A stretch of DNA of 64,000 nt from Monocercomonoides exilis PA203 (lineage: Eukaryota; Protista; Preaxostyla), in the NCBI GenBank assembly GCA_001643675.2, contig LSRY02000071.1, positions 1 to 64,000 on the forward strand, in the 5' to 3' direction. The notes under the pieces were generated by a model. The model searched no databases. It had not been told where the DNA came from and saw nothing but the letters and a program-made list of their open reading frames with translations. A program made the position numbers and the translations under genes. Positions 283 through 52,136 of the stretch are shown one piece after another (the stretch's first letter is position 1; each line of letters begins with the position of its first letter).

Positions 283-1845
283 TCAATGATGTTTACATTG
301 TGAGTCCGATATTTCCAAAGATGATGAATTCTCTCCTGTTCCAATAACTGAAATCTTCTTTGATCCAATCTCAATAGTTGTTGCTTCGCTTTGATGCTTC
401 CCTTCCATTAATGTGATTGCCAAACTAATCTGCACCTCACACATCTCAAACGCCTTCTTCACTGTCAGACACGGATATGTTTCATTTGCCCCACACAACT
501 CAAAACTATCATTTCCATTCACCGAAACATATAACGTCTTGTCCTTCAGCCAATCCTTTTTGATGTTTGATCAAATGTCCAGGCACCTGCATTTGCATAA
601 TTGTGTGCATAGCACATTCTCTTGTCATCTGTGTTTGTGGTGTAGCATTCATAGAATGGATTTCCAGAATCCAAGTACAAATTGTTATTATCGTAATATA
701 TTGCATCGTGCCCATATGGTGTGGATGCAGATCTACACTTGCAATCGTGAAAAATAAGAAGAAGCAATATAGTTTATTATCCGGTGCCGTTTCTCGATTT
801 GGATGCAAACATAATCCACCTCCATTGGATAATGCAAAACATGAAATAAACTGAATGGTACTCATTTTGAATTGTGTCGCAGGAACGGTAACGCAATACA
901 TCCCTCCACCAATCGTATTTGTGACTGAGCATGAAGTGAAACTGCAGTCAAACACACACGCACTCTCCCCTTCCCCATTTTCTGTTGGAATGCATCCTGA
1001 CCCTGAAACACTAAAACTGTACAATCGTAAACCACCACCTTCGCTGTTAGCTTTGCAATTCTTAAATTCGCACCCACCGATCCGAACACATTCCAAAATC
1101 GAATAAGCATACATTCCTCCTCCGTAATGGTTTTGTGCTGTGCAAGCATTGAACACATTATTTTCGATATATACAGATTTGATTGTATGACATATAATCC
1201 CACCACCACGGCTGTACGCAAAACAATTATTAAACAGACAATGCGAAACTGAAAGTTCTCCAGAATTGAGATTGTACATGAAAATGGCCCCTCCACTCGA
1301 TTTTCCATCCGTCCATGAATCACTTTCTCCTGTTGTCCTCGATCCACTCCATTCGCACCAAGTGAATGTATTCGTTCCATTTTCTGTTTCGTTTTGTCTC
1401 CCTGGAGTCAACTTTCTGTCTGAAGTTCCTTCACAAACAACATTTCTTGTCCTTCAGCATTTAATAAAAGAGGTGTTTGAAGCAGTCAGAGAAGCCAAGG
1501 GATTGTTGAGGGAAGTGACAATCCCGCCATCATACGTATCACAAACTGATGAGAATGAGCAACTATTCATCAAATATGTGGTTTGGGATGAGGAAGTGGT
1601 AGAAGGCGAACATGCGTCATTTGCTGTTGAGATGTTGAAAAACGTGAGTTGTGAGAAGGAAACAAGGGGAATGAAGACTCATGAGAATAATTGGCAAAAA
1701 GAGGAGAAGTGCAACTCACACACAAAAATACTATCTTCGACGCTGTCTTCTCTTCCTCTGCCTCTTGGAGCAATCTGGCAAAATATTTAATAAATTCAAA
1801 ATCCTTCTTCCCGCCTCTTCCGCTGCTTCTCAAAGGGATATCCAT
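283..1845 (-). pseudogene. Cys-rich beta-helix (GG-repeat) surface protein family, copy A, disrupted
   Basis: Family motifs (FTWCEWSGSRTTG, GGAIFMY, ESACVFDCSFTSC, PFYECYTTNT, CGANETYPCLTVKKAFEMCEV) are split over ORFs 1570-1845, 509-1411, 546-767 and 283-522. There are frameshifts and an in-frame TGA at the GCCRTR motif (~1458). Confidence 0.85.
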
Positions 1846-3329
1846 AAGAGAAAAGCATCTTTTTCTTCAGTGCCACCAAATGGATACGGAACTCCAATGT
1901 TATTTGTCAACTGTTTTCCACAGAATCTCTTTTTCTTCTGTTGTCATTTCCTGTCTTCTTTCCAAATTCAATTTTCTCGCATATATTTTGAACACATGCA
2001 AGGGCTCCGGTATCAATAAAAAAACAGAAAAAATAAAGAAAAATTACAGACAACGAAAATAAATATATTTCAATATAAAAAAGATGAAATTAAAAAACAA
2101 AGTATTTTTATAAAAATAAAAATTAATAAATAAACTGTTCCTCTTTCTTTTTGCAATCTTCCTCTTCTCCTTCCTCTTCTTTTCCTGCCAGCCCCAGCCT
2201 ATTCAGCATTGCTTTCCTCCGTTCTTCACCTCGCAAACAGACCTCCCAGCCCTGTCACTTCTCAATGCTTCCAATGCTATTTCGTGCTATCCTCTCATTG
2301 CGCCAGATCAATCTTCACTTTTGTCAATCATTTTCACAAAAAAGCACATATCTCTTTGAAAATAAAACCATAAACAAACAAACAAATAAACAAATAAACA
2401 AATAAATATCGAATTCACAAACGCAACATGTGTCAACATCCAGAAATGATAACTGCCCCCTTCCGCTTCCCTTCCCCTCCTCTTCCCTGTCCTTTCCGCT
2501 CAACTCTCCCTCCCCCAGCAAAGCACACGACCCACACCCTGACCATTTGCTTCATCGCAGCAACACCAAAACCCCAAGATGTCACCTCTCTCAGCCATCA
2601 TTCACCCCATTTTTCTGCCATCTTCCTTTGCTCTTTCCTTCTCATCCCATCTGCTCCCCTCTCCTGCTGCCAATTTCCAACACTTCCACAGCCTTCATCT
2701 TTCTGTTGCCTCTTCGCCTTTTTCCCTCCTCCCTTTCATTCCTCTATTGATTTATTTCATTTTTTCATATGTAATTTTCCATTTTTCTCTCTTTCTCTCT
2801 CTAAAACATCACAATTCCCCAACCAACACTCTTCTGCTAGCATCCATTTCATTTGCAGTGTGCAACACTGCCCCCACCGTTACTGCCCGCAATACACATT
2901 ATCCACAACAAATCACAAGAATCAAAAAAACATAGCAAACACATCCTAACAACCTGCTGAAAACAAAAGGCAAAACATCCTCATCTTCTAAAATTTTCTT
3001 TCCTCTTGTCCTCCCTTCATCTCCACAATTCTCCCCAAAAAAACACACAAAACAATCCCAATTATCGAATTTGCCAACAACCCAGACATCAAATCCCTTT
3101 CAAATTCAAAACACCCACAACCACCTCGCCGTAATGCAAATAACAGCCGTCATTGCACATCCACCGGCCTTTGCCTCAGTGCTCGGAGTGTACCGAGAAA
3201 AATACAATTTGTCTATTCCAGTCTTCAATTATGCATACGATCGTCACAATTTTGAAAAAAAAGAAAAAACTGAAAACTACCTTTGTAAATGGGAGGGCAT
3301 CAGACAATAATATTTTATGGTGGATTTGC

Positions 3330-4180
3330 TGAATTATTGTTTTTGAAGGCGTCTTGTGCGACTGGGACTGGTGTTGAATTTGGAAAGACTTGAAGCGATT
3401 TTTGTACAAGAAAGGGGATGGAGCACCGATGCTTTGAAAATATTATATATATCACGGGATATATGTATTTCTGATAATTCTATATAATGTGAAGATATTT
3501 TCATCCGTATCCTTCCCAAGTCATGATTCGGACAATTTTATATTAAAAGTCAATTTATTTTTTTGAAGAGGACAATAGCAGGGAATCACACCAATATTAC
3601 CTACAAACAGCAAATATTAAAACATGAGGATTTTTTAACGAAAAATTTCACAGTTATTTTTGATGCAATATGCAATGGGTCGAAATGCAACGAAAAACGA
3701 GTTTTAATGGAGCAGAAATTCATGGAGTCGGAAAATGCCAAATACAAAAAGGAAGTGTGACCAATTTTTCTGAAAAGGCTGCCTTTTTTAAAAGAGGAAG
3801 AGGACATTTTCAGAAAATTTGTTGGAGGGATTGGAGTGGATGCATTGAATGGAAAATGGAGACAAGTGGCTGAAACAAGAGATTGGCGGTTGTTGCTGGA
3901 CGAATGGATTTTCTTGGGTTGATAAGGACAAGACAATATTTTTATGGACTGAGAAGAGTAGTGGAACTAAATTTGATTGCTTGGTTTGAGAGCGATAATG
4001 CAAGAAAAACAGGCAGTTCGGCGTAATACAAGCAGCTGGAGGCAAATGACAGGCAAAATGGATTTGAATCATTTTGCAATCGCCTTTGGCATTGTATCAT
4101 CGAAGGGTTATCCATTGAAGCAGAGAACGAGGTTTTTTTTGAAGCAATCTTCGACAGAAAATATCCGACATTAAAGATCT
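3330..4180 (+). pseudogene. Decayed ORF module of unknown function lying upstream of beta-helix genes
   Basis: Homologous by eye to 33967-34660(-) and 57330-57900(-). Shared relics include KEEEDIFRK, ELNLIAW and NRQFG(V/I)IQ(A/T)AGGK; many stops and frameshifts. Confidence 0.55.
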
Positions 4181-5015
4181 TTAAATCCTCTTCTACACTT
4201 TCAGTCTCATCGTTTTCTTCATCTTCATCCCCTTCATCTACTTCATTTCCTTCATCGAATTCTTCTCTGTCATTATTTTCAAATGCATCTCCTCAACAAA
4301 GAAATTATATATTTTTTCACCCCTTCTTGGTCATTATCTTCTTCTTCTTCACCAAATCGTTTTGAAGGATATTTGTTGAAAGAGTTATTTGAGAAGAAGC
4401 AGAACAGGAGAATGGAAATAGGATGTTTTTTTGGAGAAGCAGAAGAGAAGCAAAGCTGTTGAATGAATGATGGAAGATGGAGATGAGGGAAATGGGTGCT
4501 TTTGCAGAAAGAAAAAAATGATCTAGAGAAGAAGAAAGAAGAAAGAAGAAGAACAGAAGCAATGAAGAATAGAGATTGTCAAAGGCATGAACACATAATT
4601 TTTTTGAATAAAAGAAATAACATTTTATCAAACTTTTCTAATATATATTTTTATTTGAAATTAGGATCTTTTTGGAAGAATATCTTCGTTGGTTAAAAGC
4701 GCGAGGGATGAGGAAAGATGGATTTTGAGGCGATCCCGGGAAGATGGCAGAAGGCAGGAAATGGAATGGGCATAGATGAGTGAGCAAAGGGAAACATATG
4801 AAATGTGTGGAAAAGATGGGATTTGCGAAATGGAAAAGGTATTTTGAAAAGGGGGAGGGGAAGCGATAAAAGATAGAGAGAAGAGAAATTGATGATAAGG
4901 CAGAAGGAGAAATTTGAGAAATAATTGAGAAGAAGAAGGCATTAATAAGAAAACAGATTGAAAACGGATGAAAGGCGAGGAAATGGAGGAAAAAGGAATT
5001 TGAAGATAGAATGTT

Positions 5016-6710
5016 TTGAGGAGCATTTGCAGAAGAGTGGGAAAAAGGGAAGAGGATGAAAAGTTTGTTGTGGGGATGGGGAAGGATATTGAGGCAGGGG
5101 CATTTGATGTGAGTGGGAGCATTGGGGCGTTGACAAACATCACATTGAAAGGATGGAGAAGAGGGGGAGAGATATACTCGGGAAGGCTGTTTGGAGGGAA
5201 GGGATATGGAGGGGAGAAGGGTGGAGATGAAGAGAAAGGAGGAGAAAGAGGAGAAGGAGGCAGAGGAAGAGGAAGAAAAGGAGATGGATATGGAGAAGGT
5301 ATTGAAGGGAGTATTTCGGTGAGTGAATCACGATTCTCTTCTTTTTGTGTCTCATCAGCCCCATTCCTGTCATCCCCTTCAATACCCCTTGTATCCCTCT
5401 CCAAACTCACATTTTTCAACATCTCAACAGCAAATGATGCATGTTCACCTCCAACCACTGCATCAATCCAAACCTCTTGTTTTATGAACAGTTGTTCATT
5501 TTCGTCTGTTTGTGATGCATATGATGGCGGGATTGTTCCTTCTCTGAACAGCCCCTTGACTTCCTTATCTGTTTCGAACACATCATTCGTTGGATGTTGT
5601 CGGACAAGAAATGTTGTTTGTGAAGGAACTTCAGACAGAAAGTTGACTCCAGGGAGACAAAACGAAACAGAAAATGGAACGAATACATTCACTTGGTGCG
5701 AATGGAGTGGATCGAAAACAACAGGAGAAAGCGACTCGTATGCTGATGGAATATCGAGCGGAGGGGCCATCTGCATGTACAGTCAATCATCTGCCTCTGT
5801 GTCTGTTTCTCATTGTTCATTTAATGACTGCATGGCATATTATAATGGCGGGGGGATATTGTGCACAAATATAAGATCAGTGAACTTCGATAATAATTCA
5901 TTTAATGCTTGCAACGCACAGTACCACGAAGGTGGAGGCGTATTCATTTATGCGATTTCATTGTGTGCTCGAATCAGCAGATGCAAGTTCCAGGATTGCA
6001 AAGCAGTTAATTATGGAGGAGGGCTTTATCTTAATAATTTTAATATTTCAGGAACCGGATGCATTGAAGCAGAAAATGAAGGAGGGGAGAGTGCGTGTGT
6101 GTTTGACTGCAGTTTCACTTCATGTTCGGTTACAAATTATTATGGTGGAGGCATGCGTTGTTACAATGTTCCTAATCAATTCAAAATGAGGAGCATTCAA
6201 TTTATTTCATGTTCAGCATTAAGAGAGGGAGGAGGATTATTATTACAGCCAAATCGAGAAACAATACCAAATGATGGAATTCATTGTTATTTTTTGTTCT
6301 TCCATGAATGCAGCTGCAGGGATGCAAATAATCCACGTGGGCATGACGTTGAATATGTTGATTATTACAATCTGTATTTGGAATCAGGAAATCCATTTTA
6401 TGAATGTTACACCACAAACACAGATGAGAAGAGGATCTGCTTTGCATACAATTATGCAATTGCAAATGTTTGGACATATGACGAAATATCAAAAAAGGAT
6501 TGGCTGAAGAGAGGGATTCTCAATCGATTTGTGGCAGTGAGTGGAGGAAACGCAGAAGAGTTGTGTGGATTGGATGAGTCAAGTGCATGCAGAACCATTG
6601 GTGTTGCAGTTGAAAAGAGCGTGATTCAAGTGAGCCTGTCAGTCACGCTGATGGGAGGGGATCACACAAGCGAGACAACAACTATTGAGATTGGAACAAA
6701 AAAGATTTAA
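5016..6710 (+). CDS. Cys-rich right-handed beta-helix surface protein-like, copy B (probably truncated)
   Basis: 564-aa ORF with repeated F.xC.A..xGGG/GGA(I) rungs typical of Pmp/pectin-lyase-like beta-helices. It ends at KKI-TAA where paralogs read KKISVIG (TCA>TAA). The start is uncertain. Confidence 0.75.
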   Translation: MRSICRRVGKREEDEKFVVGMGKDIEAGAFDVSGSIGALTNITLKGWRRGGEIYSGRLFGGKGYGGEKGGDEEKGGERGEGGRGRGRKGDGYGEGIEGSISVSESRFSSFCVSSAPFLSSPSIPLVSLSKLTFFNISTANDACSPPTTASIQTSCFMNSCSFSSVCDAYDGGIVPSLNSPLTSLSVSNTSFVGCCRTRNVVCEGTSDRKLTPGRQNETENGTNTFTWCEWSGSKTTGESDSYADGISSGGAICMYSQSSASVSVSHCSFNDCMAYYNGGGILCTNIRSVNFDNNSFNACNAQYHEGGGVFIYAISLCARISRCKFQDCKAVNYGGGLYLNNFNISGTGCIEAENEGGESACVFDCSFTSCSVTNYYGGGMRCYNVPNQFKMRSIQFISCSALREGGGLLLQPNRETIPNDGIHCYFLFFHECSCRDANNPRGHDVEYVDYYNLYLESGNPFYECYTTNTDEKRICFAYNYAIANVWTYDEISKKDWLKRGILNRFVAVSGGNAEELCGLDESSACRTIGVAVEKSVIQVSLSVTLMGGDHTSETTTIEIGTKKI

Positions 6711-9700: not shown

Positions 9701-10943
9701 ATTTGTGAAAAAACATAGATTTGAACAAAACTTTTTCTGCAATAACAGCAAAAAAAATCTTTTATTCACTGTTAAAAAGTATGCAAAATTAAAATATTGA
9801 GAAGAATAAAAGAAAATATTGAGTGGAACAAAATTCAAAAAATAATAAAAATTTGTCCCATATGTGATTTTTCAAAAAAAAAAGACACACATATTTTTCA
9901 GGAAACAAAGCTCAAATAGAACCAACAAAAACCAAAAAATGTCTAAAAAGAACACTTTATTGGTTCCTAAATAAATTGAAAACAAGCAAAAATTGTTTTT
10001 CAAAATAAATACATTTGAAGATATTTGAGTGACTCGCAAAGTTTTGATGAAAATTTTAATCAAAAATTGATCATTATGCAGTTTGCAATACCACCAATAA
10101 AAACAGAAATTGTGATTTTTCTGGATGTGACATATGTTGAAGACTTCACTTGTTCATCTTTCTCGATGCATAAGTGATGCATTCCATTTTATCATCACCT
10201 TTGCGCGCACATTTTCTGGTTATGTTTGTTTATTGTATGAGATTTATCGAAATGTTTGCTTGCCTTTTTTCATTTCTTGGAATGGCAATTCTAGATTTTT
10301 TCGTGAACTGCCTTTGATGTGTGCTTTTATAAATATCTGTTATTTTGTCCATCCTCAGCGCATTCAGGGTTGGAGAATTATTGTTTAGCCAAATTGTTGA
10401 GTTCTGCACCTGACAGCCTGGAGTATTGTTTATGCAGCAACCAAAGTGCATTTACTGAATTGCATAAGGCGAGTGGGCGGGGTTGCAATAAGCACTTGCT
10501 TGCATTATGTGGGAGAAGGAGGAGGAAGAGAAATATTGGGGGATCTTGTGGGCAAAAGTGTCCGAGAAGGGAGAAGAGAGGAAAATAGGTGTATTTGAAG
10601 TTGGATTGCGAAAAGCGAATGTCGAAAGGTAAGAAAGTGGTGAAAGAGAGTCATTCAGCTAAGATGCATGGTCAGTTATTGGAACGTTTCAGCGGAATTT
10701 GCTGTCTGATTGAGTCCAGTGTATGGAGAATAGAAGAGGAATGAAATGGTATTTCTTTATTGTGGGGAAGTTAATGGAGCGAGTGAAAGATGAGATGCGT
10801 TATGAATTCGAGGGGAGAAAAGAGGCTAAAAAGGCGATTGGAGCACGCTCGCATTATGGACTGGCCTTTTTGTTTCCCGCTCATTTGGTTCAAATGACAT
10901 CAAGATGAATGTGCACTTCGATTATTTTCAATAACATTATAAA

Positions 10944-11191
10944 GAGATATGGTATATCAGCTATTTATCCATCTCGATTAGGTCAATCAATATTATCGAC
11001 TTATGAATATCTAGTGGTTGTTATCATCTTGTATAATAAGTTGAATAGGCAATGATAATAAGATAAAGATCGATGATTATTGCTGATATACTTAGGGGCT
11101 TCTAATGATTAGATATTCAGTGATGTTCTATAAAGATGGAGTAATTGATAGGTGTAATCGAGATATATCCATAGCTGATATACCATATCTC
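10944..11191. other. Terminal imperfect fold-back hairpin (~248 nt) of the left TIR
   Basis: Stems: 10944-10964/11171-11191 (21 bp), 10971-10980/11155-11164 (10 bp), 10986-10991/11144-11149 (6 bp), 11004-11013/11110-11119 (10 bp), separated by internal loops. Confidence 0.88.
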
Positions 11192-11335
11192 CAAGGAGAA
11201 GAATTAGCAAAAACATTAACTGGAAGATTAACAAAAGTTATGTTCAAGTTGGTAAATTAGTGGTGAAATTGTGTGTTATCGTTAGTGAATAACATGAGTT
11301 CGCAACGAAGTTGTTTAGGAGACTTCGTCTCCGTT

Positions 11336-11400
11336 GAACATGTGTCGAACATGTGTCGAACATGAGTTGAACATGAGTTGAGCATGTGTTGAACCTGTTT
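11336..11400 (+). repeat. Six tandem 11-bp repeats, consensus GAACATG(T/A)GT(C/T); iteron/operator-like
   Basis: gaacatgtgtc x2, gaacatgagtt x2, gagcatgtgtt, gaacctgttt, about 60 bp upstream of the 76-aa ORF. Mirrored at 15675-15739. Confidence 0.85.
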
Positions 11401-11461
11401 GTGTTATCGTTGATGAAATCGTAAATAAAAATAATTGATTTTGTTTTTTGTTTTATAGTAA

Positions 11462-11692
11462 ATGGGTCGGAAGAAGATATACGCAACTGTGGAAGAAGCG
11501 AAAGAGGCTCAACAGAAACAAATTAAACAGTTTCAGGAAAAACGTAAGGAAGAAACTAAGTATTACAACGAACATGTAACTGAGAAACAGAAGAAATTGA
11601 TTAAGATATTGAGGAGAAAGCTTATCGAAAGTGATGAGTTGTTGGATGAGTTGATGGAAAAAGTTAATAGTTGTTTGCCCGCACCGGGTTGA
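11462..11692 (+). CDS. Small basic helical protein encoded in the TIR (76 aa), possible DNA-binding or terminus protein
   Basis: Intact ATG-to-TGA ORF, MGRKKIYATVEEAKEAQQKQ..., charged and coiled-coil-like, preceded by an AT-rich leader. Confidence 0.7.
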   Translation: MGRKKIYATVEEAKEAQQKQIKQFQEKRKEETKYYNEHVTEKQKKLIKILRRKLIESDELLDELMEKVNSCLPAPG

Positions 11693-12458
11693 TTGGGAAG
11701 TTAATGTGCAAATTGGTGGTATATAACAAGTGGCACACGTTCGTTGTACCGTTGATTGAATCAGACAGTAGTCACGATGACGTTATAGTTGATTGCCAAC
11801 ATCTATATTTTTGCTTGGAAAATGTGTCAATCGGTAGACCGGATACAGAATTGTAGCAATATCGAGATGCTGGGGGAAGGGAAATATTGGGTTAAATCTC
11901 CGTGCTGGAAGCGTAAACCGGTAAACCGGTAAACCGGATCTTTTAATTTCATCTGATAAGAGCTGCCAACATGCCATTTCTGCCAACATGAGCAATTTAC
12001 CCCTAATTTACCATGATTTTGAGGGTTTTTATTTATTTTCGACTGAATCAACATTTTGCCACATTGCCACATGATATCGTTGATGGCACACGCCAGTTAT
12101 ATCGTTGGTGATACACATCAGTTATATTGTCAGTTGTTCCAAACAGATGTTTTGCCTGCACCAGGTCGATGGGGCAGGTCATGTGGGTGATGCTGTGGCT
12201 GGGAAATATTGAGTAAAATCTCCGAGCTTTTCACCTGCACTGGATGCACCGGGTGCACCGGGTCAAATATATTCTCCAAAATATGTGGGCAAATAGGCAA
12301 ACTGGGCAAATAGGCAAAATATATTTAATGTAAAAATTAACTGTTATCGTTAATTTTCGAAATTAACTTCAACACCATCTTTCTCCGAAATGTTCATTTC
12401 AAAAATTATTCTGTTTCAAAAAAATTTTGTTTTTTTAATTTCTGTGAAATTGGCAACC

Positions 12459-14723
12459 ATGAGCAACAGCATAACGGAAACAATCGGTAACAACAGCCAA
12501 ACGGTTCAACTCCTAATTAGCATGGAAGAAAAATCATTGAATGAAAGAATTGTTTCAAACGTTGTTGATTTATTCAATTTTCAAAAGCATGATGGAGGCA
12601 GTGGCTCTGTTGTTACTGGAAGAGCAGTATTGGTAAACAAAGTGTCAAATTTAACTGTTATCGACATTGACATTAACAAATCTTTTGACGACGATTCCAA
12701 ACAATCTATAAGATCAAACATATTAAACAAACTTGACGAAGACGATGTTGTTGTTCAAACAGCTTCTGGGGGATTACACATTTATGCAAATACCGATGAC
12801 TTTTACGCCAACTCCAACAGAATGATTAAATGTTACACTTGCGATGAATTTGATGGAGATATCATGACATCGTTGGACAAGAGCAAACGATCATTAATTG
12901 TATTACCAAACAGAAAAGTGCGTAAGGATCATCGATCAAAGACAAATGTTTATCAGCTTGTTAGAGGTTCGTTTGACTCAGCAATTACACGAAATGTTAA
13001 TGATATATTGAACGATCTCTCATTGATACTGTATATAAAAACATCCGACGAAATAGATAATATTGTTAAATTAGACAACGACAATGACAATATCAGTGAC
13101 GAATTAGCTAATGTTTTTGTCAACGTGTTGGAGTGTTTTGTCATACATAACGATGGGGGAAATATGCCAGTCAACAGAGAAGTCACGTTTTTCACACTGT
13201 TTCAAGCAATTAATTCATTATCGAATAAGCATATCGAATTAGCTCACGACAGAGCACAAATCAGTTTCAATTTGACAGTTTAGGCTCGTGAAAACTATTA
13301 CACTGCAAAACAACGATACAGATGTTTGAGATCATCGCCATTTGTGTTTGTTAAGATGAATAATATTAGGAATAATAACTATTACACAAACGAGATATTG
13401 CCGTAACTGACAAACGATATCCATGTCGTTAAACTGTTAGATTTGTCAGATTCGTTTTCCATGACAGACATTCGACGAAAAGCTGAGACAAAACAATATA
13501 AAAACGCTGATGATGTTATCAGTGATTTGTCGAGAGTTATTCGATTTATTGAAACAGGGGCGATGTATATACAAAAAGATTTCAATATATTCGATAAACG
13601 TTGGGGGATAACATTTGTTACAGACACAAATATGACACGTAACTTAAAGATGATTAAACTGTGGAAAACTGAACATCAAACAACAACAGCATATGACATT
13701 CTACTGTCTTGTTTGTCGAAACTGACATTGCAGGGTGTAATGTTTAACGCAAAAGATACAGCTAATGAATTCTCGATATTTCAAGGTTTCAAGTACAATT
13801 TACGGGAACATGTCGATATGGAAACAATCTCAATGTTTCTGGACTTTGTTCGTGAGGTAATTGCTGATTCTAACAACGATGTATATGAATATGTTATTAA
13901 CTGGATTGCCAACATTGTTCAACATCCTGGAATAAAAAATGAAACAGCATTGATATTGAAAGGTATTCAAGGAATTGGGAAAAACAGATTCACTGATGTT
14001 ATATCTGAACTATTCGCTGGTTATTCCAGTCGAAATGTCACAGAAGTTGGAGAATTGACTGGAAACTTCAACTCTGTTGTTGAAAGCAAAATGTTGATTG
14101 TATTGAATGAACTGAAAAATTGTGGAGACGACAGACTGGCAAATTTCAATGCGTTGAAGTCTGTAATAACAGAAAACATTATTAGAATAAACGAGAAGAA
14201 TCAACCTCGAAGAACCGCTGAGAATGTTGCTAATTTTATATTTGTGACAAACCACTCATTTCCAGTAAAGATTGAAACAGGCGATCGAAGATATGTTGTT
14301 CTTGCATGAAATGGTAAATACAAGAACAATTTCGATTATTTCAAACAGCTATGTTCTTCATTTACGACAGAGTTTTATGATTATTTGCTCACATATTTGA
14401 TGAACAAAGACCTTTCATCATTTAACGTTAGATTAATGCCGATGACAGAGGCTAAAATCGATATTAATGAAGTAAGAAAAAGTCCGTTGGAAATGTGGAT
14501 TTGTAATCATCACGACGAGCTATGTGTTGGAATGAATTGTACAGAAGCTCTCCTCTGCAAACCTGTTGTAATAAAAGAAAGGAACTTCCAAATGCAACTG
14601 AAAGATGAATGTGAACGTAAACAGAACTCAATTATTGGAACACGTTTTTGGTATTAAATATTGAAAGTTGAGTGCAAACTGTCGCACAAACATATTGTAT
14701 CTGACGATGAGGATAATCAATAG
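12459..14723 (+). pseudogene. AEP/Prim-Pol primase-polymerase fused to SF3 (D5/NrS-1/DUF5906-like) helicase; ~754 aa with 4 in-frame stops
   Basis: ORFs 12390-13283, 13443-14309 and 14385-14657 share one frame. AEP motifs VIDIDIN and TASGGLHIY; Walker A GIQGIGKN; Walker B LIVLNE; motif C IFVTN; Arg finger DRRY. Stops at 13281 TAG, 13404 TAA, 14307 TGA and 14655 TAA; final TAG at 14721. Confidence 0.88.
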
Positions 14724-14763
14724 AAACAGAAATGTTACTGTTATATTTTTTCACGTTTTTCCG

Positions 14764-16133
14764 ATTTGCCCAGTTTGCCTATTTGCCCACATATTTTGGA
14801 GAATATATTTGACCCGGTGCACCCGGTGCATCCAGTGCAGGTGAAAAGCTCGGAGATTTTACTCAATATTTCCCAGCCACAGCATCACCCACATGACCTG
14901 CCCCATCGACCTGGTGCAGGCAAAACATCTGTTTGGAACAACTGACAATATAACTGATGTGTATCACCAACGATATAACTGGCGTGTGCCATCAACGATA
15001 TCATGTGGCAATGTGGCAAAATGTTGATTCAGTCGAAAATAAATAAAAACCCTCAAAATCATGGTAAATTAGGGGTAAATTGCTCATGTTGGCAGAAATG
15101 GCATGTTGGCAGCTCTTATCAGATGAAATTAAAAGATCCGGTTTACCGGTTTACCGGTTTACGCTTCCAGCACGGAGATTTAACCCAATATTTCCCTTCC
15201 CCCAGCATCTCGATATTGCTACAATTCTGTATCCGGTCTACCGATTGACACATTTTCCAAGCAAAAATATAGATGTTGGCAATCAACTATAACGTCATCG
15301 TGACTACTGTCTGATTCAATCAACGGTACAACGAACGTGTGCCACTTGTTATATACCACCAATTTGCACATTAACTTCCCAATCAACCCGGTGCGGGCAA
15401 ACAACTATTAACTTTTTCCATCAACTCATCCAACAACTCATCACTTTCGATAAGCTTTCTCCTCAATATCTTAATCAATTTCTTCTGTTTCTCAGTTACA
15501 TGTTCGTTGTAATACTTAGTTTCTTCCTTACGTTTTTCCTGAAACTGTTTAATTTGTTTCTGTTGAGCCTCTTTCGCTTCTTCCACAGTTGCGTATATCT
15601 TCTTCCGACCCATTTACTATAAAACAAAAAACAAAATCAATTATTTTTATTTACGATTTCATCAACGATAACACAAACAGGTTCAACACATGCTCAACTC
15701 ATGTTCAACTCATGTTCGACACATGTTCGACACATGTTCAACGGAGACGAAGTCTCCTAAACAACTTCGTTGCGAACTCATGTTATTCACTAACGATAAC
15801 ACACAATTTCACCACTAATTTACCAACTTGAACATAACTTTTGTTAATCTTCCAGTTAATGTTTTTGCTAATTCTTCTCCTTGGAGATATGGTATATCAG
15901 CTATGGATATATCTCGATTACACCTATCAATTACTCCATCTTTATAGAACATCACTGAATATCTAATCATTAGAAGCCCCTAAGTATATCAGCAATAATC
16001 ATCGATCTTTATCTTATTATCATTGCCTATTCAACTTATTATACAAGATGATAACAACCACTAGATATTCATAAGTCGATAATATTGATTGACCTAATCG
16101 AGATGGATAAATAGCTGATATACCATATCTCTT
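14764..16133 (-). repeat. Right terminal inverted repeat (1370 bp), including terminal hairpin 15884-16131
   Basis: Reverse complement of 10942-12311; ends ...TACCATATCTCTT followed by CATTAT. Confidence 0.95.
15383..15613 (-). CDS. Second identical copy of the 76-aa TIR protein
   Basis: Translation identical to 11462-11692. Confidence 0.7.
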   Translation of the reverse strand: MGRKKIYATVEEAKEAQQKQIKQFQEKRKEETKYYNEHVTEKQKKLIKILRRKLIESDELLDELMEKVNSCLPAPG

Positions 16134-16929
16134 CATTATTATCTTCTCCAACTTCATCTTTATCAGCAGCACAAAGAAAAAAATTAAAAAGATGAGATCA
16201 AACGAAAATTCGAAAAAATTGCAATTCTGTTTAATCGTTTTCATGTTTGTGTGTTTTCCATGTTTTTATTTTTTTTAAAAAAATGACTTTGTTAAACAAT
16301 TTGAATTGATTTATTTACCAATTTCTTTCAGTTTTCTTTGTTTGGAAAAGCATTTTTTATATGATTTGATTTTTTTATTTTTTATTAAATATATTTATTT
16401 TTATTTTTTTATTTTTGCTTCACTTCATTTTGATGGCTTTTTGAATTTTCTCGAAACACTCCATTTTTGTGTAAAAAAGAAAATCTTTTGCATTTCTTTC
16501 TCTTTGTTTCATCCTTTCTTCCTCGCTTGATTGTCTGCCCTTTTTCTTTTTTCACTTTTCCTATTGCTCGTTCCTTTATTTGTTGTTTGTTCATTGGAAT
16601 CAATACTGCAATTGCCCCTGCGAAAACCGTTTCTGTCTCTTTTTGCATGGAAGCGAGATGGGATTTGTCCAACACAGAGTGCTTCTCAACGGATGCAGTT
16701 TGCCTTTGAGCAAGGCAGTCAACTCCAAGCACGATTAACAAGAAAATTAATTGAAAAAAATGGAAAATAACAAAGATGAATGAAATCTACAAAAAGGAGC
16801 AATTGTGATTGCGCTTTTGCTTGTTTTGCCGAAAAAGAGAAATGCTGCAAAGCCTTCAAAAACGATGAAAGTGAAGTGCATAAAGCTTCATTTGATCAGC
16901 AATTTTGTCAATAATAGATGCATTGATAA

Positions 16930-19894: not shown

Positions 19895-20837
19895 GAGGAT
19901 GAGGATGAGAGAGGCAGCAGACTTCATTTGCATCATGAAATGCATGGGTTTTTATTCGCCTTTTTGGGGAGCAGTTTAATGGAAATGCTGTGCTTGTTTT
20001 TTTGTTTCAGCTGTTCTGGCAAGGGAAGAAGCATAGAAGGAAAGATTGGACAGAAAGAAAGGACTGGCAGATGGACGGATGGTCAAGAAGAATTTTTTTG
20101 AAGATCTGATTCCAAATGCATGGAACGGGGAAATACAGTCACAGAGCATGTTTTCAATTCTGGGATGTGCTTCGATTAATGGCAAGGCTAAGGCAAGAGA
20201 AAAAGAACGTTTGAACTTGTTTGATTTATCAATCAACGCTCATGAGTTTTGAAGACAGAAGTGTGTTTTCAAAAAATTTCAATCAGATGAATGTTTGGCA
20301 GAAGAAGAATATGGAGGAGAAGAAAAAATTGGAACATGGAAAAGGATATTGCCATAATAAAGGTTTTTTTTTTTTTCTTATTTTTCAAATAAGAATTATT
20401 ATTTTTTTCTTCAGGAATAATGATGTTTGCTGTTGTGTTCAATGCCTTTGGACGAGCATGGAATGAAGAAAGACTGGCTTTTGAGCACTTTTGTCAATAA
20501 TAGCAGGGCGCTTCGATTGAAAAGCTTTTGAGCAGGCTATACGGGGCGTTTGTTGTTTTTGTATGTTTCTGCAGAAGCATACAGAATGGAAAAAGGAATT
20601 TCACCTGATGGTTTTGCAAAGCCTTTTTACTGGAGCAGCTGAAGAAGAGACAAGCGAAGACAAAAAACGGAATTCAATCCTATTGGGATATTTTGCGGGA
20701 TTGAGCCAAGAGGAAAAGCAAGCCATTTGGAGGGAATTCTGAAGCGAGACTCATGAGAGCAGAAAAATGAAGAATTTCTGTGAGCGAATTGCATTTCTCA
20801 TCTTCAACAGCATTTCTTTCATCATCTTCAATCCCTC

Positions 20838-22925
20838 TTGCTCTCCAAACTCACATTTTTCAACATCTCAACAGCAAATGATATATGCTCACCTTCAACC
20901 ACGATGTCAACCCAAACATCATGTTTTATGAACAGTTGCTCCTTTTCATCAGTCTGCAATGGGTATGATGGCGGGATTATTCCTTCTCTGAACAACCCCT
21001 TTGCCTCTTTGACCACCTCGAACACCTCGTTTGTTGGATGTTATCGGACAAGGAATGTGAAATGTGAAGGAACTGCAGAGGTACCATTGAAACCAGACAG
21101 ACAGAACGAAACATTCAATGGAGCGAATGAGTTCATTTGGTGTGAATGGAATGGATCGAAAACAACAGGAGAAGTTGACGATAAAACTGATCGTACTTCA
21201 AATGGCGGAGCAATCAACATGAACAATTTGGCATCTGCCTCAATTTCTATTCAGCATTGCACGTTCGACAACTGTTATGCGCATTATGGAGGCGGGGGAG
21301 TCATATGCCGGCAAATCAAAGCATTTATTGCTGAAGACAATACATTCAATGCATGCACAGCTCTAAATTTCTATGGAGGAGGGTTGTATGTTTATTATAT
21401 AACTTCGTGTGTTCGGATCAGCGGATGTGAATTTCAGAATTGCAAAGCAAATTATTATGGAGGAGGGCTTTATCTTGAAAATTTTCAGGTTTCAGGAGCA
21501 GGATGCATCCCAACAGAAAATGGAGAAGGGGAGAGTGCATGTGTGTTCGACTGCAGTTTCACTTCATGCTTTGTTGAAAATGCTAATGGTGGAGGCATGC
21601 GTTGTTATAATATTCCTGTTCAAGTCAAGATAAGGAGCATTCAGTTTATTTCATGCAATGCATCATCAAATGGGGGAGGATTGAGTGCGGATCCACGTAT
21701 GACAACAGCGCCAAAAGATGGATATTATTTTTATTTCTTATTTTTTCATGAATGCAAATGCAGAAATGCAGCCAATCCATATGGGCACGATATGGTATAT
21801 TTTGATTATTACAATGTCTTTTTGTCTTCTGAAAATCCATTTCATGAATGTTACACCACAAATACAGATGAAAAGAGAGTGTGCTATGGATATAATGCAT
21901 CGAATTCTGGGAGTTGGGCATATCAGCACACGGAAAAGAAGGATTGGCTGAAAGACAAGACGATCTATGTTTCTGTGAATGGAAATGATGCATCTCCACT
22001 TTGCGGGTCAAATGAATCAAATCCGTGCAAAACGGTGAAGAAGGCGTTTGAGATGTGTGAGGTGCAGATAAGCTTGGCAATCACATTAATGGATGGGAAT
22101 CACACAAGCGAGGCAACAACAATTGAGATTGGAGAAAAGAAGATTTCAGTCATTGGGAAAGGCAAAGATAAGAGTTCGATTGGAACAGGAGCCCTTTCAT
22201 TATCATCAGCAGCTGGAGCGCTGTTCAGTGTGACAACAGGTCACATTGGTTTATTGCACATGAAGGTTGATTGTAACTCAAATTTAAGTCCTTCTTCGCC
22301 GAGTGTGGTTGTGGTGTCTGATGGGAGTGGGTCACTCTCATTGGAGGATGTGATCACCACGAGTGTTTCTTCAGGAGACTATGTGATGTCTTCGTCAGTG
22401 TTTGTGGTGCCGCTGTCACAGCTGTCGATGGTTGATGTGGAGATCAAAGATATGAATGTTGCAAAACCATTGTTCTCTGAGCTGGATCTCTCTTCTCCTT
22501 CTTCTTCTTCATTGTCGTCATTGTCGTCATCTGCACTGTATCTGACAGCCACAGCATCAGGAGATAGTGTGCTGGCGAATGTGAAGGTGACGAATGTGAA
22601 GTTGACTGAAGGAGATGGGGTGGTTGTGGCAAAGAGTGTGAAGGCAGGAGAGACGTTCGGGATGATGAGCACGAGAACAGAAGGGGAGCAGAGTGGTTGT
22701 ATATTTGGGAAGGGAGATTCTGAGATGTATTTTTGGTCACATGTGAAATTGGAGGGAGGAATAAAAAATCATAGGTGCGTTGCGATTTTGTTTCTGTTTT
22801 GTTACAACTCGTGCAACCCACATAAAATAAGCACCATCACTGCTGTAAAACACGAAATCTCCTGTTTTATCAAAGAAAGGAAAATCGGTTTTATTTGTGA
22901 AAAGGAAAGGAAGAAAGGTGAGTAA
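20838..22925 (+). CDS. Cys-rich beta-helix surface protein-like, copy C
   Basis: 695-aa ORF with family motifs. Homology continues upstream through a frameshift and a TGA at 20768. The tail after ..AGETF looks unrelated to the family. Confidence 0.75.
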   Translation: MLSKLTFFNISTANDICSPSTTMSTQTSCFMNSCSFSSVCNGYDGGIIPSLNNPFASLTTSNTSFVGCYRTRNVKCEGTAEVPLKPDRQNETFNGANEFIWCEWNGSKTTGEVDDKTDRTSNGGAINMNNLASASISIQHCTFDNCYAHYGGGGVICRQIKAFIAEDNTFNACTALNFYGGGLYVYYITSCVRISGCEFQNCKANYYGGGLYLENFQVSGAGCIPTENGEGESACVFDCSFTSCFVENANGGGMRCYNIPVQVKIRSIQFISCNASSNGGGLSADPRMTTAPKDGYYFYFLFFHECKCRNAANPYGHDMVYFDYYNVFLSSENPFHECYTTNTDEKRVCYGYNASNSGSWAYQHTEKKDWLKDKTIYVSVNGNDASPLCGSNESNPCKTVKKAFEMCEVQISLAITLMDGNHTSEATTIEIGEKKISVIGKGKDKSSIGTGALSLSSAAGALFSVTTGHIGLLHMKVDCNSNLSPSSPSVVVVSDGSGSLSLEDVITTSVSSGDYVMSSSVFVVPLSQLSMVDVEIKDMNVAKPLFSELDLSSPSSSSLSSLSSSALYLTATASGDSVLANVKVTNVKLTEGDGVVVAKSVKAGETFGMMSTRTEGEQSGCIFGKGDSEMYFWSHVKLEGGIKNHRCVAILFLFCYNSCNPHKISTITAVKHEISCFIKERKIGFICEKERKKGE

Positions 22926-29343: not shown

Positions 29344-32300
29344 TTTCAAGTTTCCATTTCAAAGTATCCCAATCTCAATTTCAAACCTATATTTTAGACA
29401 GAAAACTTGTGGGATAAGATGAACAATCTCCCTCATCAAAATAAACTATAAAAATTGAAATTGGAAAATAAAAACATAAAAAGAACAAACGAATCGGTGT
29501 TGATGCATTTCAAAAACTTCTTTTTCATCGTTTTGTGAAAGAATAATTTGTTTTGGTAAAAAAGAAATGAAATCAAAATAATTAGAAAACAAACATTCAA
29601 TTCCAAAAAAAATCAATATGGGTGATTAATTTTGAAATCATAACTTTGAATGTCATTGAGTGCCTTGTGGTTGAGATTGAAAAATAAAGATAATAAAATA
29701 AAACATTAACGAAGAAAAATTATTTCTAATAAAAAAGATTTGATTTATTTTTTAATTTTTATTTTTCATTTTGATAAATATTTCTCATTTGAATCATGAT
29801 AAAACCCATTTTCTAATTCCTCTGATTTCTCAATGAATAATTATTTTCATTTCCCCACCCCCCTGTAAAAATGAAAACGAGTGATTGATAAATCAGAAGA
29901 ATTTGATATTATTTGACAAAAATACAAAAAAAAGTTATCGTTTTCCTTTTTCATTCATCTGTTGCTGCGAAAATGCTCTCATCTTATGTTCATTCTTTCC
30001 ATATTTTTATCCATTTGTTTGTTTGTTCATCAACAAATCATTTTTGAAATTCTTCAACAGTTTGTTCCGAAATTTCATATTTCTTTTCAAACAAGGAAAC
30101 TGTTTGATTTTTTCATTTTGTAATAAAAAAAAAGTTGTTGTGAAAATTACATTTGAAAAAAAAAAAGAATGAAAAAAAAGAAAGGACTGAAATTTTTTTA
30201 AAGAAAAACTTTGTTGTCTGAAAAATCATTCAAAAGCAGTTGGCTAATGAATAAAAAAATAAAAATCATATGAATTGTTACATTGAAAAAATAGAAGGAT
30301 TCAACAAAGAAACTTGTCCACTTTTTTTTGTTTCTGCAAAACATCGAAAATTATGAATTAACCCAAATACTCTATTTTTTCAAAGAAAGAATAAATCGTT
30401 GATGTTCCATCAAATTACTCACCTTTCTTCCTTTCCTTTTCACAAATAAAACCGATTTTCCTTTCTTTGATAAAACAGGAGATTTCGTGTTTTACAGCAG
30501 TGATGGTGCTTATTTTATGTGGGTTGCACGAGTTGTAACAAAACAGAAACAAAATCGCAACGCACCTATGATTTTTTATTCCTCCCTCCAATTTCACATG
30601 TGACCAAAAATACATCTCAGAATCTCCCTTCCCAAATATACAACCACTCTGCTCCCCTTCTGTTCTCGTGCTCATCATCCCGAACGTCTCTCCTGCCTTC
30701 ACACTCTTTGCCACAACCACCCCATCTCCTTCAGTCAACTTCACATTCGTCACCTTCACATTCGCCAGCACACTATCTCCTGATGCTGTGGCTGTCAGAT
30801 ACAGTGCAGATGACGACAATGACGACAATGAAGAAGAAGAAGGAGAAGAGAGATCCAGCTCAGAGAACAATGGTTTTGCAACATTCATATCTTTGATCTC
30901 CACATCAACCATCGACAGCTGTGACAGCGGCACCACAAACACTGACGAAGACATCACATAGTCTCCTGAAGAAACACTCGTGGTGATCACATCCTCCAAT
31001 GAGAGTGACCCACTCCCATCAGACACCACAACCACACTCGGCGAAGAAGGACTTAAATTTGAGTTACAATCAACCTTCATGTGCAATAAACCAATGTGAC
31101 CTGTTGTCACACTGAACAGCGCTCCAGCTGCTGATGATAATGAAAGGGCTCCTGTTCCAATCGAACTCTTATCTTTGCCTTTCCCAATGACTGAAATCTT
31201 CTTTTCTCCAATCTCAATTGTTGTTGCCTCGCTTGTGTGATTCCCATCCATTAATGTGATTGCCAAGCTTATCTGCACCTCACACATCTCAAACGCCTTC
31301 TTCACTGTCAGACAAGGATTTGATTCATTTGCCCCGCAAAGTGGAGATGCATCATTTCCATTCATTGAAACATAGATCGTCTTGTCTTTCAGCCAATCCT
31401 TCTTTTCCGTGTGCTGATATGCCCAACTCCCAGAATTCGATGCATTATATCCATAGCACACTCTCTTTTCATCTGTATTTGTGGTGTAACATTCATGAAA
31501 TGGATTTTCAGAAGACAAAAAGACATTGTAATAATCAAAATATACCATATCGTGCCCATATGGATTGGCTGCATTTCTGCATTTGCATTCATGAAAAAAT
31601 AAGAAATAAAAATAATATCCATCTTTTGGCGCTGTTGTCATACGTGGATCCGCACTCAATCCTCCCCCATTTGATGATGCATTGCATGAAATAAACTGAA
31701 TGCTCCTTATCTTGACTTGAACAGGAATATTATAACAACGCATGCCTCCACCATTAGCATTTTCAACAAAGCATGAAGTGAAACTGCAGTCGAACACACA
31801 TGCACTCTCCCCTTCTCCATTTTCTGTTGGGATGCATCCTGCTCCTGAAACCTGAAAATTTTCAAGATAAAGCCCTCCTCCATAATAATTTGCTTTGCAA
31901 TTCTGAAATTCACATCCGCTGATCCGAACACACGAAGTTATATAATAAACATACAACCCTCCTCCATAGAAATTTAGAGCTGTGCATGCATTGAATGTAT
32001 TGTCTTCAGCAATAAATGCTTTGATTTGCCGGCATATGACTCCCCCGCCTCCATAATGCGCATAACAGTTGTCGAACGTGCAATGCTGAATAGAAATTGA
32101 GGCAGATGCCAAATTGTTCATGTTGATTGCTCCGCCATTTGAAGTACGATCAGTTTTATCGTCAACTTCTCCTGTTGTTTTCGATCCATTCCATTCACAC
32201 CAAATGAACTCATTCGCTCCATTGAATGTTTCGTTCTGTCTGTCTGGTTTCAATGGTACCTCTGCAGTTCCTTCACATTTCACATTCCTTGTCCGATAAC

Positions 32301-32498
32301 ATCCAACAAACGAGGTGTTCGAGGTGGTCAAAGAGGCAAAGGGGTTGTTCAGAGAAGGAATAATCCCGCCATCATACCCATTGCAGACTGATGAAAAGGA
32401 GCAACTGTTCATAAAACATGATGTTTGGGTTGACATCGTGGTTGAAGGCGAGCATTCCGATGTTGCTGTTGATATGTTGAAAAATGTGAGTTTGGAGA
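29344..32498 (-). repeat. Right arm of ~3.1-kb inverted duplication
   Basis: Reverse complement of ~20842-23997 with few differences. Confidence 0.92.
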
Positions 32499-32667
32499 GA
32501 AAAGCAAATGACATCGAGGGAGTTGAGAGGAATGTGGTTGAAGATGAGATAAGAGATTTGCATGTCGAAATACTTCTTTCTTTGCCTCCTTCTCTTCCCC
32601 TTGCCTCTTGGAGCCATCTCGCAAAATGTCTTAATAAGCTCACATTCCATTGTCTTGCCTCTTCCAC
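30415..32667 (-). CDS. Cys-rich beta-helix surface protein-like, copy D (near-identical to C)
   Basis: 750-aa ORF; differs from C in the N-terminus and at SMNGND..CGANESNPCLTV versus SVNGND..CGSNESNPCKTV. Confidence 0.75.
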   Translation of the reverse strand: MEEARQWNVSLLRHFARWLQEARGREGGKERSISTCKSLISSSTTFLSTPSMSFAFLSKLTFFNISTATSECSPSTTMSTQTSCFMNSCSFSSVCNGYDGGIIPSLNNPFASLTTSNTSFVGCYRTRNVKCEGTAEVPLKPDRQNETFNGANEFIWCEWNGSKTTGEVDDKTDRTSNGGAINMNNLASASISIQHCTFDNCYAHYGGGGVICRQIKAFIAEDNTFNACTALNFYGGGLYVYYITSCVRISGCEFQNCKANYYGGGLYLENFQVSGAGCIPTENGEGESACVFDCSFTSCFVENANGGGMRCYNIPVQVKIRSIQFISCNASSNGGGLSADPRMTTAPKDGYYFYFLFFHECKCRNAANPYGHDMVYFDYYNVFLSSENPFHECYTTNTDEKRVCYGYNASNSGSWAYQHTEKKDWLKDKTIYVSMNGNDASPLCGANESNPCLTVKKAFEMCEVQISLAITLMDGNHTSEATTIEIGEKKISVIGKGKDKSSIGTGALSLSSAAGALFSVTTGHIGLLHMKVDCNSNLSPSSPSVVVVSDGSGSLSLEDVITTSVSSGDYVMSSSVFVVPLSQLSMVDVEIKDMNVAKPLFSELDLSSPSSSSLSSLSSSALYLTATASGDSVLANVKVTNVKLTEGDGVVVAKSVKAGETFGMMSTRTEGEQSGCIFGKGDSEMYFWSHVKLEGGIKNHRCVAILFLFCYNSCNPHKISTITAVKHEISCFIKERKIGFICEKERKKGE

Positions 32668-33966
32668 TTCTTCTGATCACATGCTCTCTTAAAACATCCT
32701 TTTCTCCGCTTTTCGTCTCCTGTCTTCTTTCCATATTCCATTCACATTCATCGCTTTTGAATATTCACTCAAAAGTCCCTATTATCAATTAAAAATAAAG
32801 AAAAAAATATTTAAAATGTAATACAAAATATCACAAATCAGTACCATTTTCTTTTTTCAATCTTCTTCCTTTTTTCTTTTCTTCTTCTCGAATTTTTGTC
32901 ACATTTCTTCTTCAGCCATTTCTTCAATTTTCCGATTATTCTTTTCTGTTGCTTCCCCTCCTTCTTTTTCAAAATTCAACATAAATCTTCAAAGGTCTCC
33001 TCTCACATTCATTTCATTTAACACCTCTGGCTCATTCTTCAATATTCTCAAATTTTTGTCATTGCCTGATTTCTCAAAAGCATCCAATATGCTCTTTTTC
33101 CCATGTTCATTCGTTGCCTGAAAATGCCCTTCCGCAAATCTTAATCCCTCAAAAAATAAATAAATATTTGAAAAAATTGGAGGAAAAAAAAATAATACAA
33201 AACACACTCTAAAAATATGTTTATTGCCAATCTTCACACACTTTCTTCTTCTTCTTCGAGTGCCTCTCAAAATATTGTTCTTTTCTGCCAACAACACCCA
33301 GCTGATCTGTCTCCGCTGCCAATCTCAACATCAATGAAAGTGATTCTGTTCTGCTTCCAACAACTTGCTTATTTCCAATCCTCGGCACTGCTTCCGCTCG
33401 AATAACTCTAATAACAAAAATCCTTCAAAAAGATTTGGATGAAGAGGAAGCAGAAAATGAGGGAGGATGAATCAATGGCGCGGGGAAAGCAGATGAAAAA
33501 GATGAAAAAGATGAAAAAGATGAAAAAGATGAAAAAGACAAAGATAAATAAAAATTAGTTGAATTCGATGAAGAAGAAACACTTGCAGAAGGTGATGAAG
33601 GTGATGAAGGCAGAGAAGAAAAGGAAGAAAAGGAAAGAGAAGAAGGCGAAGAAGATAATGATTAAGAATGAAATAAAATTATTTCATATGCTTGGGTCGT
33701 GTAAAGAAAAACATGACGAAAAAGTCGAAGAGAAAAAAGCAGATAAAGAAAGTGAAGGTGATGAAGGTGATGAAGGTGATGAAGGTGATGATCAAAAATG
33801 GGGAGAAAAATACACATTTTCATATCATTTGTAGGTGTATACGAAAACATGATGGCGATGAGACAGATAAGGCTGACAAAAACAATGAGGCTGAAGAAGA
33901 AGGGGGAGAATAGACGAAAAAGTCGAAGAAGACAATGAAGTCGATGAAGTCGATGTTATCGAGATT

Positions 33967-51213: not shown

Positions 51214-52136
51214 TGAAATTCTTCCTTTCCCTTCACTTATTTACCACATGCCTCTTGGCGCCACGAAGCAAAATATCAAAATTAGCTCAAATCCCTTTTC
51301 TTGCCTCTTCCTCTGCTTCTCAAAGGGATATCCATAAGAAGAAAATCATCTTTCCCTTTAACTCCTCTAAATCGAAACGAAATTCCAACGTTCTTCATCA
51401 TTCATCTTTCGACAAATCCTCTTTTTATCTTCGCTTCCCATTTCCTTTCTTCTCTCCACATTCCATTCGCATTTATCGCTTTTGAATAACCACACAAATG
51501 CTCCTATAATCATTAAATAACTGGGGAAAAAAATATAAATTTGTAATTAAATACGAAAGATAATTTTTTAAAACAAAACAAAGCAAAATAAAATAAAATA
51601 TAACAAATAATAAGAAAATTTTTCAAATGAATTTTTTTCACACACTTTTTCTAATTCGTCCTTTCTTCTTCATTTCCTTTTTTTTCCCCCAAAATATAGT
51701 TCCTTTCTGTCAGCAAAATTCATTTGTCCCGCCTCCGTTTCTTTTCTTCTTCTCATAAAAATTATAGCCAAAGCCCAATCCTCGGTTCTGCTTCAAGTGG
51801 AATAACTCCAACAGCTCAAATCGTAAAATTAGGCAATGACGATGATGAATAAAAGGAAGATAAGGAAGACGAAGAAGAGGAAGAAGAAGATGGCGATGAT
51901 AAAGAAGAGGAGGAGGAAGAAAATGAAAAAGAGGAGGATGAAGGTATATATTTTTTTGAAAAAAATATTGATAAAAAAGTTGGTGATGATAAATGCGCTT
52001 TTGGAACAACCCACACAATTATCATAGCCACCAAAGACTCAGCCTCTATCTTTCTGCTCCGAGTTCTTCGTTATCTCAGATATCTGCTCGGAAAAAATAA
52101 CAAGAGAAGGGATGTTGAAAATTAGATTTTTGTAGA

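Follow-up and report, generated by a model that had tools for sequence, protein, structure and literature searches.

A 5,190-bp element bounded by long terminal inverted repeats

The window, a 64,000-nt stretch of the Monocercomonoides exilis PA203 genome (contig LSRY02000071.1, positions 1 to 64,000, forward strand), contains a mobile element in which two long terminal inverted repeats (TIRs) enclose a decayed replication gene. Its features, in window coordinates, are the following:

10943..16132, no strand assigned: whole element, 5,190 bp, with 5′-AG...CT-3′ ends, delimited by the TIR limits and by the loose ends of other copies
10943..12319, plus strand: left TIR, 1,377 bp, 99.86% identical to the right TIR
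14756..16132, minus strand: right TIR, 1,377 bp
10935..10940, plus strand: CATTAT, left copy of a possible 6-bp target-site duplication (TSD), 2 nt outside the element end
16134..16139, plus strand: CATTAT, right copy of the possible 6-bp TSD, 1 nt outside the element end
10944..10991, plus strand: outer arm (48 nt) of the left terminal fold-back, with 40 of 48 positions in Watson-Crick pairs and 2 in G-T pairs
10992..11143, plus strand: interior or loop of the fold-back, 152 nt, weakly structured (z −1.3) and variable from copy to copy (at least 20 of 152 positions variant)
11144..11191, plus strand: inner arm of the left fold-back, with pair-forming variants at 11150 and 11165
15884..16131, plus strand: mirror fold-back at the right end; the 3′ end would fold flush, and the terminal T16132 faces G15883
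11333..11398, plus strand: tandem repeat of six 11-bp units inside the TIR (mirror 15677–15742)
11462..11692, plus strand: intact ORF inside the TIR for a 76-aa basic coiled-coil protein (mirror 15383–15613, minus strand)
11913–12321: further short tandem repeats with 8–25-bp units
12459..14723, plus strand: decayed prim-pol (AEP) and SF3 helicase gene of the NrS-1 polymerase type, with four in-frame stops and no frameshift

The left and right TIRs differ at two positions, both at the inner edge. The unique core of 2,436 bp contains only the primase frame, and no other ORF longer than 110 aa is present in the element. Considering that a match at the offset of the two CATTAT copies (2 and 1 nt) is expected by chance at about 1.8% at AT-rich sites, the pair is likely to be a 6-bp TSD, although not a clean one. 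Short open host frames at 10931–10942 and 16133–16195 are in register across both CATTAT copies, which weakly supports a TSD. A search for an empty site gave no host homologue of the left-flank ORF and no paralogue within the window; paralogous host contigs for the flank exist among the run contigs.

Data on sister copies consisted of contigs from four runs (X1 to X4) of one sample. Loose ends of other copies were found before positions 10941–10943 in all four runs, most often at 10943, with at least 13, 9, 10 and 6 such contigs listed in X1, X2, X3 and X4, respectively, and a consensus agreement of 0.51–0.82. Because the flanks at these loose ends are heterogeneous, the family has inserted at many AT-rich sites, with an AG start and a CT end. 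Together with the TIR limits, the loose ends identify the two termini as the genuine boundaries of a mobile element that carries a primase-helicase gene; a sequence-only reading of the window was right in taking them for replication-type ends. Summed contig depth, which is not equivalent to copy number, was far higher over the hairpin and the small ORF than over the core, and many deletion joints crossed the TIR. Such a pattern is what a family rich in short derivatives would show. The sister cores differ by about 10–13%, and most do not have the stop found in the window copy at 13404–13406.

In several sister contigs the sequence that precedes 11734 is a different one, and positions 11734 and 14764 are connected by an opposite-strand joint; the 1.4-kb TIR of the window copy may have grown recently from a shorter one. 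The TGTTATCG motif recurs at 11271–11284, 11397–11413, 12339–12352 and 12654–12663, that is, from the TIR into the start of the primase gene, and is a possible candidate for an iteron or protein-binding site. Elsewhere, the window is filled by many paralogues from a single family of cysteine- and glycine-rich repeat proteins (509–6710, 20784–22925, 30415–32676, 36261–37964, 49522–56223 and 60154–61851), two of which (20784–22925 on the plus strand and 30415–32676 on the minus strand) are near-identical and inverted. A 1,786-codon low-complexity ORF with poly-S, poly-E and EK repeats and a strong strand skew is found at 39917–45277.

The prim-pol/helicase gene and its relatives

The frame of the replication gene comprises 753 codons including its four stops, and its DUF5906 match has an E value of 8e-21. 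The DxD and SGGLH primase motifs (sGGxH) and the Walker motifs are intact. A recoded genetic code was rejected as an explanation for the stops, because three types of codon occur among them and they fall opposite four different residue columns of the alignment. We modelled the structure of an intact homologue (P0002; mean pLDDT 83). The model aligned with the NrS-1 helicase CTR (Z 25.9, rmsd 4.1, 363 aligned), and its residues 18–186 aligned with the pRN1 prim-pol (Z 9.8, rmsd 3.5, 149 aligned) and the NrS-1 prim-pol (Z 8.0). Judged from this model, the predicted product of the element gene matches an AEP prim-pol joined to an SF3 helicase, with no HUH domain. Pfam found the prim-pol family in 0 of 25 alignment members, whereas the fold comparison did find it. 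NrS-1 polymerase and pRN1 prim-pol, which are phage or plasmid enzymes (PMC7102993), have the same architecture.

The 76-aa ORF is 91% identical to M. exilis MONOS_17995 and has 10 further relatives at 35–40% identity. This family of 11 relatives has a GR..Y...E motif and a coiled coil, and the ORF is the deepest-covered part of the element. The product is possibly a DNA-binding or end-binding protein. The named match and the host genes of the window indicate Monocercomonoides or a close oxymonad as host.

We found 115 homologues of the prim-pol/helicase; foremost among them were metagenome proteins of gut type and, at 57% identity, a Trichomonas vaginalis cluster with 198 members. Of the four loci retrieved, L004 has the homologue next to DUF4108, an A32-like ATPase and an ORF that looks PolB-like. 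This last name was given by eye from motifs, because the ORF had no Pfam or PDB match and its model reached a pLDDT of 31. Positions 1–9384 of L004 resemble a protist class-3 Maverick within a contig of a bacterial MAG, which is likely misbinned. At L002 a truncated homologue lies beside an A32 ATPase, and L003 overlaps L002. The protein scan of viral_contigs gave one distant virophage-like locus and later scans none; the metagenome scan gave two short loci and the genome scan one locus, none of which reaches the element ends. L001, a distant virophage-like contig of 15 kb with a prim-pol/SF3 gene, also contains a perfect palindrome with 40-bp arms between two convergent genes (10685–10764) and longer internal inverted repeats (12287–13183). 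A quick tree built from 37 proteins placed the window protein with the Histomonas, Trichomonas and L004 sequences (support 86–94) and apart from the annotated M. exilis and Streblomastix D5 proteins (support 97), a grouping that hints at horizontal arrival of the gene.

Maverick/Polinton elements have 5′-AG...CT-3′ termini and a 6-bp TSD. Long TIRs (1,377 bp, 99.86% identity) and AG...CT termini are present in the window element, and its ORFs include no rve integrase, pPolB, capsid, packaging ATPase or protease. It is therefore likely to be a non-autonomous derivative and not a full member, and we are fairly confident of its identity as a Maverick/Polinton derivative.

In the available sections of PMC12289875, a DNA primase gene is reported in 91.8% of 1,705 T. 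vaginalis class-3 Mavericks, which also carry DUF4108 and an A32 ATPase, in the usual gene order, and an integrase; an AG start is seen in 8 of the 12 canonical T. vaginalis Mavericks listed, one of which is only 5,856 bp long. The gene id of the T. vaginalis cluster was not found in the supplements available, and we infer that this cluster is the annotated Maverick primase. Like class-3 Mavericks, the window element has a primase gene, possibly of the same clade; AG starts and short deleted copies also occur among the canonical T. vaginalis elements, and the L004 homologue likewise lies with DUF4108 and an A32-like ATPase. By contrast, class-3 Mavericks are described there as 15–26 kb long, with 100–130-bp TIRs, an integrase, pPolB and capsid-like genes (PMC12289875), whereas the window element has 1,377-bp TIRs, none of these genes and an oxymonad-like host. 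By eye, the canonical T. vaginalis Maverick tips given in the same paper seem to form roughly 25-bp imperfect hairpins about 9 nt in, whose arms differ in concert between copies (PMC12289875); hairpins at the ends may be a general feature of metamonad Mavericks.

Pairing in the terminal fold-back and its variation among copies

Each terminus had been read as an imperfect hairpin of nested stems. These stems lie where the earlier reading placed them: a perfect 21-bp stem (10944–10964/11171–11191), a 10-bp stem (10971–10980/11155–11164) and a 6-bp stem (10986–10991/11144–11149) share the diagonal i+j=22135, and a 10-bp stem with one G-T (11005–11014/11109–11118) and an 8-bp apex stem (11049–11056/11076–11083) are both present in the minimum free energy (MFE) structure. 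The mirror copy at 15884–16131 is exact. Folded as DNA, 10944–11191 has an MFE of −38.6 kcal/mol (z −5.9), which none of 200 shuffles equalled, and for its minus strand (z −6.2) none of 100 shuffles was as good, so that the hairpin surpassed every shuffled control, the comparison by which the reading had proposed to judge it. The interior (10992–11143) folds about as expected by chance (z −1.3, with 14 of 100 shuffles as good; minus strand z −0.6, 27 of 100), and the apex stem is no better than shuffles (6 of 100). The fold signal is carried only by the outer 48-bp stem. The folding energy alone is not unique, because 2 of 515 fixed 248-nt tiles covering the whole window, which were not aligned to the hairpin, reach −38.6 kcal/mol or lower; what sets the hairpin apart is that it lies flush with the terminus and has a perfect 21-bp stem. 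Rfam gave no matches, and the terminal 21-mer gave none in viral_contigs.

The element starts at 10943, one base outside the hairpin, and at either end only 1 nt precedes the stem, so that a 3′ end, once folded, is positioned to prime. On each strand, 21–23 perfect pairs flush to the tip can form when the 3′ end folds back, with the final base facing a G; this geometry is that of a primer or of an origin for helicase loading. The bubbles, described as symmetric and unpaired, contain mismatches but are not fully open: bubble 1 consists of two mismatches, two pairs and two mismatches, and bubble 2 of a G-G, two G-T wobbles, one C-G pair and an A-A.

Variation among copies was examined with 40 listed variants of 111, which are unphased and come from one sample. 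Among those listed, at least 4 of 80 Watson-Crick positions varied, with minor alleles at 7–22% of depth in X1 and X2; three of these variants break the pair (10979, 11162 and 11179) and one gives a G-T. Variants were found, again among those listed, at no fewer than 5 of 16 mismatch or G-T positions (p = 0.006 against the paired positions) and at least 29 of 201 loop and downstream positions (p = 0.025), and 4 of the 5 mismatch-site variants yield a Watson-Crick pair (p = 0.045). None of the 40 falls within 10944–10964. The inner arm is conserved, and the 49 nt just beyond it contain at least 9 variant positions. Position 10966 is G in 92–95% of depth (X1 and X2), pairs with the C at 11169 and closes half of bubble 1; the pair 10965/11170 occurs as G-C and, in loose-end consensuses, as A-T; and the majority letter at 11143 adds one pair to the stem. 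Variants in the inner 10-bp and apex stems were mixed, and one loose-end consensus has no apex arm.

These results show that the stem is kept across copies while the mismatch positions vary. Since sister copies repair the mismatches of the window copy in four of five cases, the left-arm TATCC is not conserved. This word, supposedly displayed on both arms, is absent on the left from 92–95% of depth, and on the right arm 11170 varies in about 44%; the symmetric display is not supported. The GGT words have no majority variant among those listed, but are largely G-T paired and not displayed unpaired as had been claimed. The bubble words are mostly mutations of the window copy. Selection and arm-to-arm conversion, which the variation cannot separate, both imply that the arms pair in vivo.

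The left-junction contigs of X1 and X2 stop at 10971, the merge point, if k=31, of a second end sharing 10942 onward together with the private letters of the window copy. Both TIRs therefore probably carry the same private mutations, a pattern suggesting that one end was copied from the other while a defective copy replicated, or that conversion followed later.

Models for the element ends

In the accessible text of a 2026 preprint, terminal palindromes located in TIRs next to TSDs are reported for four virophage subtypes and one PLV subtype of Halocafeteria seosinensis, are tied to non-pPolB replicases and are given hairpin priming as a proposed model (bioRxiv 10.64898/2026.07.28.741278). The window element likewise has a palindrome in its TIR at the element end, next to a TSD (here possible), and a non-pPolB replication gene. 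Unlike the window element, which is 5.2 kb long with a replicase only, the H. seosinensis elements are described as virus-sized, with structural genes and an integrase; no capsid or morphogenesis genes, a feature of palindrome-tipped virophages and PLVs, are found among the ORFs of the window element. Their palindromes are about 52 nt (gap limit 10 nt), whereas here a 48-bp stem encloses 152 nt. Beyond what the preprint's available text reports, variation across copies of the window element favours pairing. Transpovirons are also small, with few genes, and probably helper-dependent, but according to the accessible part of PMC3671162 they have an SF1 helicase and 6–8 genes and are tied to mimiviruses, in contrast to the SF3/DUF5906 protein of the window element. 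Bellas 2023 placed metamonad elements among Maverick-Polintons and PLVs, and the available passages mention neither Monocercomonoides nor hairpins. The literature search, which lay outside Repbase and subscription papers, gave no description of the window element, of primase-only hairpin-tipped elements or of such elements in M. exilis; 35% of the published M. exilis assembly consists of unclassified repeats.

Taken as a whole, the reading that we favour, with somewhat better than even confidence, is that the element is a likely non-autonomous Maverick/Polinton derivative in which the 48-bp stem, and not the bubbles, is probably a cis-acting replication origin or primer. That the terminal stem is functional seems likely to us; strict self-priming by the hairpin is put forward only tentatively. 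A full-size helper would supply the integrase and an intact replicase, moving the element in trans. After excision, the helicase would unwind the duplex, and the freed 3′ end would fold back with its 21–23 perfect pairs flush to the tip and be extended by, or load, the prim-pol. One end could then be copied onto the other through a 1.4-kb panhandle, which would keep the TIRs identical even with a dead gene, and the product would be integrated at AT-rich sites in one fixed orientation. Simple hairpin priming followed by terminal resolution would invert the hairpin, and the fact that no flop form is listed is in tension with this model; asymmetric resolution, or end repair through the TIR panhandle, might account for it. 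NrS-1-type prim-pol primes de novo, at an internal 8-nt site and not at a terminal hairpin, according to the available text of PMC7102993. The prim-pol therefore need not use the hairpin, and an origin role is as plausible as self-priming.

The sequence-only reading had instead seen a telomere of the parvovirus or poxvirus type, with flip/flop isomers and bubbles serving as nickase or primase sites. Homotelomeric parvoviruses resemble the element in size (about 5 kb), in their identical long ITRs and in their imperfect AT-rich terminal hairpins; the hairpin fold is significant and the helicase is of the SF3 superfamily, as in parvoviruses, and imperfect AT-rich terminal fold-backs are common to parvovirus ITRs and poxvirus and ASFV telomeres. 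Unlike these, the window element has no HUH Rep and no capsid, and it has many host insertion sites and AG...CT ends. For a flop copy one would expect joints between opposite strands and changes at 16 specific letters. No such joint is listed among 1,045 contigs, the two joints listed both being deletions, and 12 of the 16 flop letters are absent among the 40 listed variants of 111; because contigs drop rare variants, this speaks only against common flop isomers among integrated copies. No HUH nickase or endonuclease is encoded, the N-terminal domain being a prim-pol, and the left TATCC is missing in 92–95% of depth. With neither a flip/flop joint nor an HUH nickase, a viral telomere of this type is not supported; we consider it very improbable, and the analogy fits less well than that with the TIR palindromes of Mavericks and virophages.

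A stem without function is unlikely, but deserves more weight. A single fold-back template switch could have duplicated the tip inward, with arm-to-arm conversion or mismatch repair keeping the arms alike. The pair-forming variants are exactly the letters expected from copying one arm onto the other, the interior is unstructured, the family is full of deletion joints, and the available text of the H. seosinensis preprint itself names accidental annealing as an alternative (bioRxiv 10.64898/2026.07.28.741278). Against this, the inner arm is conserved, yet the next 49 nt vary at 9 positions or more, both G-C and A-T states occur at the single pair 10965/11170, and terminal palindromes recur in unrelated primase-type elements (same preprint) and, by eye, at the T. 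vaginalis Maverick tips shown in PMC12289875. An assembly or polishing artefact behind the perfect mirror symmetry would explain 1,368 bp without mismatch around a gene with four stops, and direct contig crossing concerns the left host junction, not the right. However, zero-difference contigs span the left host junction in all four runs and, in X2 and X3, also cross the border between left TIR and core (with one gap in X3), the X1/X2 junction contig ends at 10971, where, if k=31, an identical second end would be expected to merge, and hundreds of contigs cover the hairpin; an artefact is hardly credible.

Finally, the element could be a self-replicating, primase-only linear satellite with a transpoviron-like lifestyle, whose hairpin ends solve end replication and whose integrase and capsid are borrowed from Mavericks or a giant virus. 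The core carries the replicase gene alone, the sister cores are about 10–13% different and mostly free of the stop at 13404–13406, and the stem is flush with the element end. In addition, 37 of 57 near-full-length homologues (the top rows of the list of 115, minus the T. vaginalis row) are on contigs with at most 600 nt of flank, but such short contigs may be transcripts. Two of the readable loci, L002 and L004, put the primase clade inside Maverick-like gene sets, and termini far exceed cores in summed depth, as in decaying derivative families. We therefore regard the satellite as improbable, and give equally little credence to its wider form, a minimal eukaryotic replicon class of 5-kb linear DNA with parvovirus-like hairpin ends, no nickase, fold-back priming by a prim-pol/helicase and hitchhiking on Maverick integrases. 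If true, such elements would be Maverick satellites that may be widespread in gut protists and may have passed between parabasalids and oxymonads.

Under the favoured reading of a Maverick/Polinton derivative, the element bears on end replication in Polinton-like elements that have no protein-primed polymerase, for which, in the accessible literature, hairpin priming has so far only been proposed. Terminal palindromes had already been reported on virophages and PLVs; what is new here is the long loop and the evidence of repair across copies, and the length of the loop suggests that ends of this kind escape palindrome screens run with short gap limits. With this family, a group of virus-like repeats in an oxymonad-type genome receives a name, and the problem of end replication comes down to a single enzyme and a single 248-nt cis element. 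Since the variation points to the stem and not to the bubbles, the model is directly testable.
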